In this document: positions 1-31,903 of the stretch, in pieces | How positions within the stretch are numbered: position 1 is the first letter of the stretch | How the letters are laid out: every line of letters begins with the position of its first letter | Source: a virus | Lineage: Duplodnaviria > Heunggongvirae > Uroviricota > Caudoviricetes | Virus record (IMG/VR): IMGVR_UViG_648276649_000004 | Reading direction: 5' to 3' (one strand) | Length of the DNA: 31,903 nucleotides | Made by a program: the position numbers and the translations under genes | The notes under the pieces: model-generated | Databases searched by the model: none | Told to the model about the DNA's origin: nothing | Seen by the model: only the letters and a program-made list of their open reading frames with translations

Positions 1-729
1 GAACATCGTCTCGATACGCCCTGGATAACGTTTATCCCAGTCACGCAACATGTCAGCAATCACCTGACGTTGCAGGTTAGGCTGTGAACCGCACAGGTTG
101 CACGGAATAATCGGGAACGCTTTTGCATCGGCAAATCGCTGAATATCTTTCTCGCGGCAGTAGGCCAGCGGACGAATAACGATATGTTTGCCATCATCGC
201 TCATCAGTTTCGGAGGCATACCTTTCATCTTGCCGCCGTAGAACATATTTAAGAACAACGTTTGCAGGATATCGTCACGATGGTGACCCAACGCGATCTT
301 CGTCGCCCCCAGTTCCGTTGCGGTACGATAAAGGATACCGCGACGAAGGCGAGAACACAGTGAGCAAGTGGTTTTGCCCTCTGGAATCTTCTCTTTCACG
401 ATACCGTAAGTATTCTCTTCAACAATCTTGTACTCAACGCCCAGCTTTTCAAGATACTCGGGCAGAACGTGTTCCGGGAAGCCCGGTTGCTTTTGATCGA
501 GGTTAACAGCCACCAGCGAAAAATTGATTGGCGCGCTTTGCTGCAAATTGCGCAGAATCTCCAGCATGGTATAGCTGTCTTTACCCCCGGAGAGGCAAAC
601 CATGATGCGATCGCCTTCTTCAATCATATTGAAGTCAGCAATGGCTTCGCCCACGTTACGACGCAGACGTTTTTGTAATTTGTTCAGGTTGTATTGTTCT
701 TTCTTTGTAATTTGTTGATTATCTTGCAT
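1..729 (-). CDS. ttcA: tRNA 2-thiocytidine biosynthesis protein TtcA, N-terminal part; gene continues beyond the window start
   Basis: Minus-strand translation from the ATG at 727-729 gives [22 protein letters not shown]... with the PP-loop motif CLSGGKDS and the CSLC/CNLC cysteine pairs typical of TtcA. The first 396-623 ORF in the track is an in-frame piece of the same reading frame. Confidence 0.85.
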
Positions 730-780
730 TATTTCAGTTCTCTGGTACTAAATGGGGCAAATTGGGGGCAAACTTTGCAA

Positions 781-2016
781 CTACGATAACCGCGCATTCA
801 ACATGGCTATCTGTTCGTCGTTCATGTCATCAATCCACATACCGTAAATTTCATACACCATCTGCGCAGTTTCATGCCCCATTTGGCTGGCTATAAATGC
901 CGGGTTCGCTCCTGCCGTCAACAGCCAGCAGGCAAAAGTATGCCGCGTATGGTACGGATTACGGCGGCGAATACCAGCACGTTTTACTGCTGCATTCCAC
1001 CTTGCCCCCAAACTGCTTACCGAGTAATAAGGTTTTTGTTTTCCGTTACACACCCTGGGCATGAAAACAAAATGCAGTTTTTGCTTTTCGGTTCTGCCGT
1101 ACTCCCGATGATAAAAGGTGATTTCGCTTTTGCGATGATGCCCGGTCAGTTTGTATTGCTCCTTCAGTGCTTCAAGAGCAGGCTGCAGTAGTGTTACTGT
1201 TCGGATCCCGGCATTTGTTTTTGGGGGACCGAACATATCAAGTATCGTCAGGTTTCTTCTGACATTCACTATTCCCTTTTCGAGATCCACATCCTCCCAC
1301 GCCAGAGCTGCCAGTTCCCCGTGACGAAGTCCTGAGTAAACGGCAAATTTCCACAAGTTCTGGCTCTGTCCTTTTTCACTTTCCATTAATGCATTGAATT
1401 CTGTTTTAGATAACGGATCAGGCTTTATTCTGTTTCGCTGTAATTTTTTTACTCCTTCAAATGGTTTGGTTGATATAAATCCCGACTGATACGCAAAACG
1501 CAACAGCGAACAGAGCAGGGCGATATAGTTATCAACTGTGCGCACGGTTCTTCCTTTTTTGTTGGATCTTGGATTATCCAGGTAAAGCGTTTCTCCATGC
1601 AGCAGTTCATTCCGGTAGTTTAAGATATCGCTATAACGAATATGTGATATCGGGGTACTTTCACAAATTATTATTCTGAGTGTTTTTAATTGTGATTTCG
1701 TTTTCTTCATTGTGTTTGTTGTTAACTCTGTCTCTTTAATTTTTGTCCAGATATCACAAAGCTCTCCGAACGTTTTTATGACTCTCGTTGTCACCATTTT
1801 TGCCCCAGTGCTGGACTGGGGAAAACGTCTTAAATACTCAAATTCACCGGAGTTTATTTCATGAACTATCAGCGCTCTTAAATTTCCGGCCTTTTTAATA
1901 TTACTGTTTGTAATCTCCCAGCCTTTTAATGTTTCCCGACATCGTTTTCCTCGAAACATGAACCAGATGCGAATGTATCTACCTCTAATCTCGACACCTG
2001 TTGGTAATTTAGACAT
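781..2016 (-). CDS. intR: Tyrosine-family phage integrase, 411 aa
   Basis: The 411-aa ORF has the C-terminal catalytic region (...HTRHTFACWLL...) characteristic of lambda-type integrases and lies immediately next to ttcA, the known Rac attachment locus. Confidence 0.9.
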   Translation of the reverse strand: MSKLPTGVEIRGRYIRIWFMFRGKRCRETLKGWEITNSNIKKAGNLRALIVHEINSGEFEYLRRFPQSSTGAKMVTTRVIKTFGELCDIWTKIKETELTTNTMKKTKSQLKTLRIIICESTPISHIRYSDILNYRNELLHGETLYLDNPRSNKKGRTVRTVDNYIALLCSLLRFAYQSGFISTKPFEGVKKLQRNRIKPDPLSKTEFNALMESEKGQSQNLWKFAVYSGLRHGELAALAWEDVDLEKGIVNVRRNLTILDMFGPPKTNAGIRTVTLLQPALEALKEQYKLTGHHRKSEITFYHREYGRTEKQKLHFVFMPRVCNGKQKPYYSVSSLGARWNAAVKRAGIRRRNPYHTRHTFACWLLTAGANPAFIASQMGHETAQMVYEIYGMWIDDMNDEQIAMLNARLS

Positions 2017-2017
2017 A

Positions 2018-2233
2018 TCATGAGTCTTTGATAAACTGATTTATCTTTGGATAGTTGTACCAGATAATCCCTCGTTTGCTGTCTGGCTTACCTAAAGGAG
2101 ATACTCGTTTGAAGTGGAAGCCCTCCACCCAACAGTTCTGGCGGTATGCTTCAATTTGTCTGGCCCCCAGACCAGTGCGAAGCATCAGGCCGTATTCAAC
2201 CATCCACTCTTCATTAAAGATTACTTGTGCCAT
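2018..2233 (-). CDS. xisR: Excisionase-like protein (start taken at the internal Met, [10 protein letters not shown]...)
   Basis: Small ORF directly upstream of int on the same strand, the usual xis-int arrangement; matches my recollection of Rac YdaQ/XisR. The start is chosen at M9 of the track ORF. Confidence 0.7.
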
Positions 2234-29573: not shown

Positions 29574-30230
29574 AAACTTTATATGGGTGCTATTTTTATA
29601 ATAGCTGGTAAAAACTGGCCGAACTGAAATTCACTGTTGATAAAAAAGATGTGTTTGAGTGTATGTCATTGTTTTCTTAATGGAATCCACTAGAATGCAG
29701 CGAATTTAAGAAGGTGGGTTTTTATTGGAATATAAACTACAATAATGCTCAACTCGTTCGTAGAATTGTTTTTTCTTATTTTTTGGAATGCTAACCATTA
29801 TATGCATTATGGGGGCGATACTTCCTGATAATTTACATGATGCATACATTGAAGCAATAAATTCAATATCATTGTCATCAAAGTTAAAGCTTTCTCCGTC
29901 CATTTCAATTCCTTATGTGTTTGGCACAACTGATGCTGTATCCCATGAGAATTTATGCAAGTTGTTATGTTTGATTTGATATTGCAATGATAATTGTAGC
30001 TAATTGTTTTCAATTGAGTGAAAGTTTATTTCGAGTGATTAAGTCGAAAAAAAAGATTTCTCACGGTTAGTAAGCGTATTAGGTTAGTATTCAGATATGA
30101 ATGGTATTAATGACTAAATTTTCAATCATATATGGATTTTTATGCTGATGAAGATGTTTTATTTGGCGATTCGTCAAGCATCTTCACTTAAGTAATCGTA
30201 TATTTTAAGAGTGCAAAAGAGAAAGGGACA

Positions 30231-30335
30231 ACGTTGCTCGCACTCTGGATTAAATATAGGGTGTTGTTAAACTGCGTTGATACATAATTGTACCGGATAT
30301 TGAGTGGTCTGAAGTCCCAGTCATTAAGTAATCGT
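30231..30335 (+). repeat. Second degenerate tfa 3'-end copy (copy C)
   Basis: acgttgctcgcactctggattaaatatagggtgttgttaaactgcgttgatacataattgtaccggatattgagtgg... has the same motif order as the tfa C-terminus with in-frame stops. Confidence 0.5.
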
Positions 30336-30619
30336 TTCGTGATATGCCGCAGAAACGTTGTATGCAATAACGTTCTGCGGTTGGCTGATGCACTTTCGAG
30401 AGTGTATTGAATAATTTCAATCCGTTATTGTTTTTACGCGTAACACCATGAAAAGACTGCTTATCTGTTGGGGTATTTTTTGGGGCATATATGGGACAGA
30501 AATAGGCCACAGATAGATAGTAAGATCGAACTCAGGATGCTTTTGAAAAAATGTAACTATCTGAAAAAACCTAGAAAGCGCCAAGGAAACCACAGAATGA
30601 GAAAAAACATCTGTGAATT

Positions 30620-31903
30620 ATGGATTTCCAGTTATATTCGCTCGGCGCAGCGTTGGTGTTTCATGAAATATTTTTTCCTGAATCATCAACGGCAATGGCG
30701 TTAATTTTGGCAATGGGAACCTACGGTGCAGGTTATGTGGCGCGTATTGTCGGAGCATTTATTTTCGGCAAAATGGGCGACAGAATAGGGCGTAAAAAAG
30801 TGCTCTTTATTACCATCACCATGATGGGGATCTGTACCACCTTAATTGGTGTGTTACCGACCTATGCACAGATTGGTGTTTTTGCCCCCATCTTGCTGGT
30901 GACGCTGCGTATTATTCAGGGGTTGGGTGCAGGTGCGGAAATTTCCGGTGCCGGTACGATGCTGGCGGAATATGCACCAAAAGGTAAGCGCGGAATTATC
31001 TCCTCATTTGTAGCTATGGGAACTAACTGCGGAACCTTGAGCGCAACGGCAATCTGGGCCTTTATGTTCTTCATTCTCAGTAAAGAGGAACTGCTGGCGT
31101 GGGGATGGCGTATACCGTTCCTGGCGAGCGTTGTCGTGATGGTCTTTGCTATCTGGTTACGTATGAATCTGAAAGAAAGCCCGGTCTTTGAGAAGGTTAA
31201 TGACAGCAACCAACCCACAGCAAAACCTGCACCTGCTGGTAGCATGTTCCAGAGCAAATCCTTCTGGCTGGCAACAGGGCTGCGTTTTGGTCAGGCGGGT
31301 AACTCCGGGTTAATTCAGACTTTCCTTGCAGGCTATTTAGTGCAGACGTTATTGTTTAACAAAGCAATTCCAACAGATGCATTGATGATTAGTTCGATTC
31401 TCGGCTTTATGACCATTCCGTTCCTTGGTTGGTTATCCGATAAAATTGGTCGCCGGATCCCGTATATTATTATGAATACCTCCGCGATTGTGCTGGCATG
31501 GCCAATGCTTTCTATCATTGTAGATAAAAGCTATGCCCCGAGCACCATTATGGTTGCACTGATTGTGATTCATAACTGTGCGGTGCTGGGATTATTTGCT
31601 CTGGAAAACATTACCATGGCAGAAATGTTCGGCTGTAAAAACCGCTTTACCCGGATGGCCATTTCTAAAGAAATTGGTGGTCTTATCGCTTCCGGTTTTG
31701 GTCCTATCCTGGCGGGTATTTTCTGCACCATGACGGAATCCTGGTATCCGATCGCCATTATGATCATGGCATATTCAGTGATTGGTTTAATCTCTGCGCT
31801 GAAAATGCCAGAAGTGAAAGACCGTGATTTAAGTGCGCTGGAAGACGCTGCGGAAGATCAACCGCGTGTTGTAAGAGCTGCGCAACCTTCCAGAAGTCTG
31901 TAA
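30620..31903 (+). CDS. ydfJ: Metabolite:H+ symporter (MHS) family MFS transporter, YdfJ-like, 427 aa; N-terminal region appears disrupted
   Basis: MHS hallmarks (...GKMGDRIGRKKVLFITITMMG..., ...WGWRIPFLASVVVMVFAIW...). The ORF starts at a position corresponding to the WYDF motif of complete MHS proteins, so about 25-30 N-terminal residues are missing or frameshifted. Identification with K-12 ydfJ is from memory of its size and its position beside a Qin-type prophage. Confidence 0.75.
   Translation: MDFQLYSLGAALVFHEIFFPESSTAMALILAMGTYGAGYVARIVGAFIFGKMGDRIGRKKVLFITITMMGICTTLIGVLPTYAQIGVFAPILLVTLRIIQGLGAGAEISGAGTMLAEYAPKGKRGIISSFVAMGTNCGTLSATAIWAFMFFILSKEELLAWGWRIPFLASVVVMVFAIWLRMNLKESPVFEKVNDSNQPTAKPAPAGSMFQSKSFWLATGLRFGQAGNSGLIQTFLAGYLVQTLLFNKAIPTDALMISSILGFMTIPFLGWLSDKIGRRIPYIIMNTSAIVLAWPMLSIIVDKSYAPSTIMVALIVIHNCAVLGLFALENITMAEMFGCKNRFTRMAISKEIGGLIASGFGPILAGIFCTMTESWYPIAIMIMAYSVIGLISALKMPEVKDRDLSALEDAAEDQPRVVRAAQPSRSL

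Follow-up and report, generated by a model that had tools for sequence, protein, structure and literature searches.

The window, by which we mean the whole stretch of 31,903 nucleotides that was analyzed, corresponds to draft contig ADWV01000030.1 (GCA_000179175.1; 100% identity over 13684-31903). Window base 1 is base 3 of this source contig, which is ~42 kb in length and belongs to a draft from about 2010. A first-pass annotation, made from the letters alone, had placed a Rac-type left end (ttcA) and a Qin-type right end (ydfJ) on one molecule with a phage-21/DLP12-like lysis module between them, and this is what the sequence holds: a single 31.9-kb stretch comprises ttcA-intR (the Rac left end) and ydfJ (the Qin end), with essD, rrrD, and rzpD in between. 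The features are as follows, in window coordinates.

1-729, minus strand: the 5' 243 codons of ttcA, chromosomal flank of the Rac att site (PGAP annotation of identical sequence, translation)
680-720: Rac attL core (blastn of window 501-900 against Ecol_224 and against the window itself)
781-2016, minus strand: intR integrase (annotation)
2018-2233, minus strand: xisR excisionase (annotation)
2312-2708, minus strand: rcbA and the ralR toxin gene (annotation)
2337-2515, plus strand: RalA antitoxin sRNA (Rfam RF02694, 225 bits)
2765-6167, minus strand: recT and recE, the Rac recombination pair, with recE full length at 866 codons (annotation)
6269-11305: Rac early region, with racC, ydaE, kilR, sieB, ydaF, a divergent HTH repressor/Cro-like pair, a YdaT-family gene, a hypothetical gene, and DUF977
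11640-18982: cargo island in the Rac-site prophage, with a BCCT transporter, DUF2254, a LysR regulator, a ChaC-like gamma-glutamylcyclotransferase, an MFS transporter, and TehB-like DUF1971
19772-21200, plus strand: late-regulation genes DUF1367, DUF1364/YbcO, and DUF1133 (Q-antiterminator-like)
22243-23217, plus strand: two ORFs with a TolA C-terminal domain, directly upstream of the holin gene
23442-23849, plus strand: homology tract of the two parental prophages, the sole one in Ecol_224 (408 bp, 22 mismatches, 94.6%)
23469-23684, plus strand: essD holin gene, Rac-site allele, carrying G10D (A at 23497)
23684-24181, plus strand: rrrD lysozyme gene, an intact hybrid ORF (V8 from the Rac-site copy; F62, A73, and M98 from the Qin-site copy)
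23759-23849, plus strand: putative crossover interval, 91 identical bp, the last perfect block of the tract, inside rrrD (SNP tables)
within 24178-24964, plus strand: rzpD/Rz1 spanin genes, Qin-site copy
24671-24964, minus strand: iss/bor lipoprotein gene, Qin-site copy
25645-27470, plus strand: DUF1441 (nohA-like) gene and a terminase large subunit (gpA) gene truncated at the C-terminus
27500-28887, plus strand: tail-fiber C-terminal fragment and tfaQ
28888-30346: AT-rich spacer (GC about 0.32) replacing ynfT-ydfK-pinQ of K-12
30347-30619: conserved last 273 bp of Qin, adjoining ydfJ (blastn to K-12 1,632,286-1,632,565; Qin feature boundary)
30620-31903, plus strand: ydfJ', N-terminally truncated, 427 codons, in the same form as in K-12; chromosomal flank of Qin

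The left arm begins as Rac does, with attL at the ttcA 5' end adjoining intR and xisR, and the K-12 Rac left arm matches window 1-8397 at 99.86% identity, the K-12 match stopping at 8397. The cargo island (GC 0.45-0.54) retains its gene order in 247 complete genomes. The TolA-domain ORFs are the final Rac-site-specific sequence and are missing from the Qin-site copy in the relative Ecol_224, where an IS1 at the left edge of that copy abuts 23442. At the right junction of Rac, attR in Ecol_224 is a 41-bp copy of the att core (92.7% identical by blastn) between uspF and ynaM, and in K-12 a ttcC fragment marks it. A blastn comparison of positions 501-900 to the window itself detected the att core only once, and the right flank is ydfJ-ydfI rather than an attR or ttcC fragment beside uspF/ompN.

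The right arm ends as Qin does, with the tail-fiber end abutting truncated ydfJ. All head and tail genes from the terminase to the fiber are deleted. Window 27582-28888 matches stfQ-tfaQ of K-12 (homologues 96% identical), the tail-fiber fragment and tfaQ are 95-97% identical to Rac-site stfR/tfaR, and the Qin end together with ydfJ' (30347-31903) is 96.4% identical to K-12. AR_0128 and Ecol_224 have ydfJ-site remnants that differ from the window at only 1-2 positions across 23759-31903. Beyond ydfJ', the source contig runs on into ydfI, ydfZ, and rspR, which identifies the right flank as the true ydfJ locus. As for the other arm of Qin (integrase/dicB/dicA next to rspB), no intQ, dicA, dicB, or dicF was identified in the window, where the ORFs are Rac-type, and an Rfam scan of the window gave no match to DicF. 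Since it combines a Rac attL with a Qin right border, the element is neither Rac nor Qin as defined, and it differs from K-12 Rac and Qin in its immunity, replication, cargo, and lysis regions. The K-12 map on which the first-pass annotation drew is correct: ttcA (1.411 Mb) and ydfJ (1.631 Mb) are 219 kb apart, and the prophages are oppositely oriented.

The lysis module (23469-24639) encodes a class II holin (PF04971), a lysozyme (PF00959), and Rz (PF03245), with Rz1 (PF06085) identified on identical sequence. PGAP names the cassette essD/rrrD/rzpD, which are DLP12 names. Its phage 21/DLP12 type is assigned from domain content and these names. The start of RrrD (27 residues, not shown) includes an N-terminal hydrophobic segment resembling a signal anchor, and the protein may exhibit signal-anchor-release behavior. 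The cassette is ~97.6% identical to that of many free phages, and the Rac-site cassette of EC7 differs from that of the window at only 4 sites.

Comparison with Ecol_224, which is unrearranged and the nearest relative with a complete genome, divides the window into two parental halves. Positions 1-23849 show 2 differences from its ttcA-site prophage, and positions 23759-31903 show 2 differences from its ydfJ-site (Qin) remnant. The tract common to both parents extends over the essD holin gene and 166 nt at the start of rrrD and includes perfect blocks of 105 bp (23601-23705), 91 bp (23759-23849), 51 bp, and 40 bp. Within it the allele switch is clean, in that all 22 Rac-type alleles lie left of the crossover interval (23451-23758 has 22 mismatches to the ydfJ-site copy) and Qin-type sequence occurs only from 23850. 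In Ecol_224 the Rac-site rrrD is truncated at 23849 by a fusion to stfR, and it is there that the ttcA-site copy diverges from the window. The essD G10D allele, common to the window and the Ecol_224 lineage, is private and so ties the left half to that lineage. In Ecol_224 the tract copies are on opposite strands (2,554,235-325 and 2,752,827-917), 198.5 kb apart, and are inverted on either side of dif (2,609,338), with a TerC-like site at 2,590,951 also between them. On Ecol_224, the window maps to the reverse strand in its left half and to the forward strand in its right half, which fits an inversion-type join and excludes a deletion. Recombination between resident prophages, which the first-pass annotation had suggested as either an inversion or a deletion, is therefore the best reading in its inversion form only.

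The best reading of these alignments is that the window represents a defective hybrid in which Rac and Qin, two resident prophages of E. coli, are joined inside the phage lysozyme gene rrrD. In this reading, two defective lambdoid prophages, one of Rac type at ttcA and the other a Qin-type remnant at ydfJ, lay in opposite orientation and flanked the replication terminus. Homologous recombination between them would have inverted a stretch of the chromosome, and the window would be one of the two new junctions. The exchange would have taken place in the 91-bp block at 23759-23849. The event was presumably a reciprocal inversion, putatively catalyzed by RecA or by the intact RecE/RecT pair of Rac, and it would have shifted dif by about 88 kb. 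Provided that the draft contig is correct, the flipped segment around the replication terminus measures ~199 kb. With attL of the hybrid and the old attR now inverted and about 200 kb apart, excision would be impossible. The hybrid retains an intact lysis cassette but lacks head and tail genes, and it is therefore cryptic.

Support for the junction comes from additional contigs. A Logan k=31 contig from run SRR088903, which may not be the source strain, is 100% identical to window 22619-26549 and carries all 22 Rac alleles followed by all Qin alleles, running unbroken through 23442 and 23849. Forks would be expected at these positions in a genome with both unrecombined copies, so the fork-free contig suggests that the essD-rrrD 5' tract occurs only once in the SRR088903 genome. 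Because two copies should remain after a plain reciprocal inversion, a further deletion at the other junction must be assumed. The same switch was identified in MOEY01000172.1, a 681-bp contig of another assembly. In DAKRMP010000097.1 (8.3 kb), Rac-left is joined to Qin-right with the switch in the other perfect block (23601-23705), and DAKRMJ010000103.1 is a Qin-Rac-Qin mosaic in the tract, reflecting either real gene conversion or assembler path-switching. The exact hybrid RrrD protein was detected on only 4 contigs in a collection of 15 billion proteins (5 carrier contigs were read from a separate contig index), as compared to 252 contigs for Qin-type RrrD and 73 for the parental RrrD-StfR fusion.

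The junction is absent from all 5,426 complete E. coli genomes, with no place covering at least 80% of 19000-31903. The intervals that the first-pass annotation had flagged as suspect joins proved to be ordinary module boundaries: 247 complete genomes carry both 10.8-11.6 kb and 19.0-19.8 kb as contiguous sequence, and at least 19 do so for 28.9-30.6 kb at the ydfJ site. The unflagged interval 23759-23849 is the only junction present in no complete genome. A switch at a short exact repeat is also the spot where a graph assembler would misjoin, which calls for caution. The window could be a chimera of an ordinary Ecol_224-like arrangement, in which the assembler crossed copies in the 91-bp exact repeat and fused contigs 200 kb apart. 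The switch falls exactly in the perfect block that ends where ttcA-site homology ends, ttcA is linked to ydfJ through this junction in one draft contig only, and three different allele mosaics occur among the short contigs. Moreover, the predicted simple reciprocal product, a 735-aa fusion of a Qin-type RrrD N-terminus to StfR, was not found among the 15 billion proteins, and we judge the ratio of hybrid to parental RrrD contigs to be compatible with a low misjoin rate. Against this, a misjoin needs two copies, and the unbranched Logan contig has a pure Rac-then-Qin haplotype across 23442-23849, albeit from a run that may not be the source strain. Reads of 400 bp, typical of HMP drafts of the period, would span a 91-bp repeat, and Rac x Qin inversion is real in complete genomes. 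We consider an assembly chimera unlikely, though it carries appreciable weight.

Two further explanations dispense with an inversion. The truncated ttcA-site rrrD'::stfR could have been repaired by gene conversion with the ydfJ-site copy as donor, the left anchor lying in rrrD and the right one in the stf/tfa homology; the ydfJ link would then be a secondary misjoin or part of a more complex rearrangement. Mosaic alleles are common in the cassette, as in EC7 and DAKRMJ010000103.1, and the other hybrid-rrrD contigs all stop between 26549 and 27702, at or before the stf homology, such that none reaches ydfJ. Rac-to-Qin conversion is also documented (PMC4444293). However, the stf/tfa sequence of the window (27469-28870) has 0 mismatches to the Qin copy, as compared to 95-97% identity to the Rac site, and continues unswitched into ydfJ. 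Conversion would also leave 23759 to about 27500 in two copies, which the fork-free Logan contig argues against, and the Rac-left sequence and this Qin-right block are joined in no complete genome; we therefore regard conversion as improbable. A mosaic prophage native to the ttcA site and carrying a ydfJ-like gene, as the first-pass annotation had also proposed, or a Rac-Qin deletion product, is less credible still, to the point of being scarcely tenable. Lambdoid prophages are mosaic, and the cassette recurs in free phages, but ydfJ' is followed by ydfI, ydfZ, and rspR as in the chromosomal locus, at least 19 complete genomes carry the right 8.1 kb, bar 1-2 differences, as their ydfJ-site remnant, and attR is missing from the window. 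The opposite strands of the two halves on Ecol_224 are unattainable by deletion. Collectively, these observations favor, with fair though incomplete confidence, a real inversion junction and a fresh instance of prophage-mediated terminus inversion.

The closest known arrangements are in K-12 derivatives. In the complete genome of K-12 C600 (NZ_CM132660.1), the inversion between Rac and Qin is fully reciprocal and both junctions can be read (ttcA-Rac-stfR-tfa-pinQ-ydfK-ynfT-ydfJ-ydfI and rspB-Qin-tfaQ-pin-ynaM-uspF-ompN), and the complete genome of Origami2-DE3 (NZ_CP084529.1) matches the same junction query with 100% coverage and 99.9% identity. A literature search returned no paper describing this inversion. 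As in the window, the same att sites are involved, the ttcA-intR-Rac left arm is joined to the Qin tail-fiber end and ydfJ-ydfI, and about 200 kb is inverted across the terminus. In contrast, the crossover in C600 and Origami2-DE3 lies in several-kb stf/tfa/pin/ynaE-ydfK repeats, whereas that of the window lies in the lysis cassette; K-12 Rac lacks genes for a holin and a lysozyme, and the lysis cassette of K-12 Qin differs from that of the window. The window homology is only 408 bp, and its reciprocal junction was not found, unlike the two junctions of C600.

In E. coli O157:H7, inversions bounded by prophages are an established phenomenon around the terminus. As proposed for the window, lambdoid prophage sequences that flank dif in inverted orientation undergo homologous recombination there, with a bias to the terminus (PMC8743559). 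Those repeats are at least 5 kb at ≥98% identity in largely intact Stx-type prophages, as opposed to 408 bp at 94.6% in two cryptic remnants, and long reads and optical maps provided the proof of those inversions (PMC8743559), whereas the window is known from one draft contig and short contigs. RecT of Rac efficiently recombines short diverged repeats, including inverted ones, and lambdoid phages undergo relaxed homologous recombination with the defective prophages Rac, Qin, and DLP12 (PMC3945230); Rac-to-Qin gene conversion has been described in K-12 ER2796 (PMC4444293). These systems resemble the window in that short identical blocks are exchanged in diverged lambdoid modules and Rac and Qin are involved, yet they comprise phage-prophage exchange or non-crossover conversion patches rather than a crossover that would rearrange the chromosome. 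A terminus flip of this kind is already known, and the window is a new instance and not a new kind of event.

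Alignment to the E. coli K-12 MG1655 chromosome assigned the two ends of the window to different prophages. Identity was 99.86% to the left arm of Rac over positions 1-8397, 96% to stfQ-tfaQ over 27582-28888, and 96.4% to the final 273 bp of Qin together with ydfJ over 30347-31903. The alignment bears out the first-pass annotation, which had described a Rac-type end at ttcA and a Qin-type end at ydfJ on one element. The K-12 map on which it relied is likewise correct (ttcA ends at 1,411,948 and ydfJ starts at 1,631,002), and the phage-21/DLP12-like lysis module that it placed between the ends comprises genes of the essD/rrrD/rzpD kind. 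In K-12, the integrase end of Rac is at low coordinate and that of Qin is at high coordinate, and the two prophages are therefore oppositely oriented.

The gene order of the window, compiled from the ORF listing and from identical annotated sequence in complete genomes, is as follows.

Features of the window
1-729, minus strand: 5' 243 codons of ttcA
After ttcA, in order: intR, xisR, rcbA, ralR, recT, recE, racC, ydaE, kilR, sieB, ydaF
2337-2515, opposite ralR/rcbA: RalA antitoxin sRNA (Rfam, above gathering score)
After ydaF: HTH repressor/Cro-like pair, YdaT-family gene, hypothetical gene, DUF977 gene
11640-18982: cargo block of BCCT transporter, DUF2254, LysR, ChaC-like gamma-glutamylcyclotransferase, MFS transporter and TehB-like genes
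3' of the cargo block: late-side genes DUF1367, YbcO and DUF1133 Q-like gene
21946-22132, between the Q-like gene and the TolA-like ORFs: STnc100 (Rfam, above gathering score)
22243-23217, just upstream of the holin gene of the ttcA-site prophage: two consecutive ORFs with a TolA C-terminal domain
3' of the TolA-domain ORFs: essD (holin, PF04971), rrrD (lysozyme, PF00959), rzpD (Rz, PF03245), then iss/bor
3' of iss/bor: DUF1441 nohA-like gene, truncated terminase gpA, tail-fibre C-terminal fragment, tfaQ
28649-28847, within the 3' part of tfaQ: IS009 (Rfam, above gathering score)
28888-30346: AT-rich spacer of 1.5 kb, GC about 0.32, small ORFs only
Right end, terminating at the very last base of the window: ydfJ', 427 codons

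Both recT and a full-length recE (866 codons) are encoded in the window, which contains no tRNA genes and no internal repeat exceeding 77 bp. Spanning 7.3 kb, the cargo block separates the replication genes of the ttcA-site prophage from its late genes and reaches a GC content of 0.54, compared with about 0.41-0.45 in neighbouring prophage DNA; it is present in the Rac-site prophages inspected and absent from K-12 Rac. One of the TolA-domain ORFs is labelled a tolA fragment in complete genomes. At 26193-28306, the truncated terminase large-subunit gene directly abuts the C-terminal part of the tail-fibre gene; a single deletion has removed every head and tail gene of the Qin-site prophage, and its junction is common to at least 19 complete genomes. 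Relative to K-12 Qin, the AT-rich spacer stands in place of ynfT-ydfK-pinQ between tfaQ and ydfJ.

At least 80% of positions 1-25000 was present as a single block in 247 complete genomes, the best of which, at the ttcA site, matched 1-24567 with 99.9% identity, and trkG follows the lysis cassette in the two ttcA-site genomes inspected (ATCC 43896 and EC7). At the ydfJ site, at least 19 complete genomes have positions 23442-31903 at 99.7% identity, with IS1 adjoining position 23442 in both of those inspected (AR_0128 and Ecol_224). None of 5,426 complete E. coli genomes carried at least 80% of 19000-31903 at one place, and a 1.2-kb junction-spanning probe recovered from complete genomes only Rac-site cassettes followed by trkG (closest 99.7%). 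The closest relatives of both halves co-occur in one complete genome, that of Ecol_224 (NZ_CP018948.1). The ttcA-site prophage of this strain has 2 differences from window 1-23849, an IS3 insertion aside, and has a private essD G10D allele in common with the window, and its ydfJ-site remnant has 2 differences from window 23759-31903. Some Rac-site prophages with a full cassette, that of EC7 (NZ_CP060963.1; locus L020, 12001-13201) among them, differ from the window at only 4 sites over 23250-24450 before reaching trkG. Alleles of the lysis cassette have been reshuffled between Rac-site prophages.

In the Ecol_224 lineage, the ttcA-site rrrD ends after nt 166 (window position 23849), where it is fused in frame to stfR. 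The resulting 735-aa 'tail fiber protein' ORF (NZ_CP018948.1, 2,750,785-2,752,992; 12786-14993 of its Rac-side locus, L019) links the lysozyme's hydrophobic N-terminal segment to stfR at an internal position. Because rrrD is cut at this point, the Rac- and Qin-site copies share only 23442-23849, a tract of 408 bp with 22 mismatches (94.6% identical) and perfect blocks of 105, 91, 51, and 40 bp. Up to 23758 the window has the Rac allele at every one of the 22 variable positions, and past 23849 its sequence is Qin; the exchange therefore lies within the 91-bp block at 23759-23849. The hybrid RrrD is intact; its V8 derives from the Rac copy, and its F62, A73, and M98 derive from the Qin copy. This protein does not serve as a marker of inversion, since DAKRMJ010000103.1 encodes it in a Qin-Rac-Qin context.

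The Qin copy of the 91-bp block in Ecol_224 is on the forward strand (2,554,235-2,554,325) and the Rac copy is on the reverse strand (2,752,827-2,752,917), 198.5 kb away. Judged from these strands, the join of reverse-strand ttcA-side DNA to forward-strand ydfJ-side DNA is an inversion-type junction. The first-pass annotation had proposed recombination between resident prophages by inversion or deletion; the strand switch relative to Ecol_224 favors inversion, and deletion between Rac and Qin is ruled out by the opposite strands of the halves in that genome. Its other proposal, a native mosaic prophage at ttcA, found no support, as the right flank is ydfJ-ydfI-ydfZ-rspR chromosome and the window lacks a Rac attR. 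Inversion mediated by IS1 was rejected because the junction lacks IS1, and inversion through the stf/tfa repeats was rejected because it would retain the rrrD'::stfR fusion, which is absent from the window.

We propose that homologous recombination between inverted repeats would have generated the inversion, through exchange in the 91-bp perfect block of the 94.6%-identical tract and with RecA or RecET as the candidate pathway. Between the Qin and Rac copies in Ecol_224 lie dif (2,609,338-365, an exact 28-mer match), a TerC-like site (2,590,951-973, 1 mismatch), and the Rac attR (2,748,198-238). On inversion, the distance of dif from the Qin-side breakpoint would grow from 55 kb to 143.5 kb, and attR would end up inverted relative to attL. 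Since attL is present in the window without attR, and attR would be inverted relative to it, the element is predicted to be unable to excise by Int/Xis recombination. If the inversion is real, then a prophage pair sharing 408 bp, with a longest perfect block of 105 bp, can still invert ~199 kb including dif and TerC. It would also have displaced dif by about 88 kb with respect to the remaining chromosome, made a new intact hybrid lysozyme gene, and parted Rac attL from attR, thereby locking both hybrid remnants into the chromosome.

Contig ADWV01000030.1 (42.2 kb, draft assembly GCA_000179175.1) is 100% identical to window 13684-31903, encodes the exact hybrid RrrD protein, and extends past ydfJ into ydfI, ydfZ, and rspR. 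Gene coordinates place the start of the window at base 3 of this contig, and from this offset we infer that the identity continues to the left of 13684. The contig begins in the middle of ttcA (codon 243), a single-copy gene, and no repeat accounts for this interruption, which may stem from a coverage gap or an IS insertion in the source strain.

Collectively, these observations suggest that the junction is probably a real inversion junction. A misjoin at the 91-bp repeat, which would look the same and calls for caution with any draft assembly, strikes us as unlikely. A Logan contig (k=31) from a separate assembly of run SRR088903 is 100% identical to window 22619-26549 and carries a pure Rac-then-Qin haplotype that is unbroken at 23442 and 23849. 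Two unrecombined copies would give bubbles or forks, and this contig has none. The reads of SRR088903 therefore seem to contain a single copy of the tract, which, if the run is of the source strain, would argue against a misjoin because a misjoin needs two. The same Rac x Qin topology, moreover, occurs in complete K-12 genomes. However, the single-copy signal misfits a plain reciprocal inversion, whose other junction would retain the shared tract, and a later deletion there, for example beside IS1, would have to be assumed.

Other contigs and proteins provide points on both sides. In favor of a real junction, MOEY01000172.1 (681 bp) has the same switch as the window, and in DAKRMP010000097.1 (8.3 kb) Rac-left sequence runs into Qin-right sequence with the switch in the 105-bp block (23601-23705). 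Against it, these short contigs with a hybrid rrrD all end before 27.8 kb, short of ydfJ. The Qin-Rac-Qin allele mosaic in the essD-rrrD tract of DAKRMJ010000103.1 means that a hybrid RrrD alone is no proof of inversion. An exact-sequence look-up in a collection of 15 billion proteins did not return the predicted reciprocal fusion protein, whereas the parental fusion was encoded on 73 contigs and the Qin-type RrrD on 252; this absence weighs little because stfR is repetitive and likely split in drafts. DAKRMJ010000103.1 and DAKRMP010000097.1 are neighbouring accessions with differing mosaics over 23555-23760, reflecting either frequent cassette exchange or path-switching by the assembler.

Complete genomes were also searched with a synthetic K-12 junction of a Rac x Qin inversion via the tail-fibre/pin repeats. 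This probe matched Origami2-DE3 (NZ_CP084529.1) and C600 (NZ_CM132660.1) with 100% coverage and 99.9% identity. It was covered to at least 80% in 684 genomes, among which only these two K-12-background matches are interpretable and the other 682 are not diagnostic, because many Qin-site prophages outside K-12 are suspected to retain full-length stf. In C600 (2,426,140-2,474,934 and 2,226,000-2,262,000), one junction reads dbpA-ttcA-intR...stfR-tfa-pinQ-ydfK-ynfT-ydfJ'-ydfI...dcp and the other reads rspB-intQ'...nohA-'stfQ-tfaQ-pin-ydfK-ynaM-uspF-ompN-nifJ. The reading of both junctions shows that a reciprocal Rac x Qin terminus inversion is viable, and one has been assembled from end to end. 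C600 and Origami2-DE3 carry a ~200-kb Rac x Qin inversion through the stf/tfa/pin repeats, a crossover site different from the rrrD block of the window. Our literature search turned up no publication on such an inversion, though two public complete genomes have one. If the junction in the window is real, it and these two genomes suggest that Rac x Qin inversion is an under-reported structural variant that extends to common laboratory strains.

Separate crossovers fall in tfa/pin (C600 and Origami2-DE3), the 91-bp block of rrrD (the window), and the 105-bp essD-rrrD block (DAKRMP010000097.1), and conversion patches occur in the DAKRMJ mosaic and in ER2796. Crossovers in different modules, together with conversion patches, would be in keeping with repeated Rac/Qin flipping. 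It is conceivable, if rather doubtful, that Rac and Qin form a standing inverted-repeat pair flanking dif that flips the terminus domain repeatedly in E. coli. Were this so, the inversion would amount to a structural polymorphism that recurs and may be reversible, one that the prophage's own RecET might promote and that would trap both cryptic prophages and move dif by tens of kb.

Elements of the proposed inversion in the window have precedents. RecA requires some 30 bp of perfectly identical sequence (a figure cited in PMC3945230). On diverged inverted repeats, the normally silent RecET of Rac was 20- to 100-fold better than RecA in a phage assay (PMC3945230). Gene conversion from Rac to Qin has been described in K-12 ER2796 (PMC4444293). 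In O157:H7, terminus-biased, prophage-bounded inversions are well documented and involve repeats of at least 5 kb (PMC8743559), whereas the junction in the window lies in a tract of 408 bp. As an inversion, the event in the window is a fresh case of this documented type and is unusual mainly for the small homology used.
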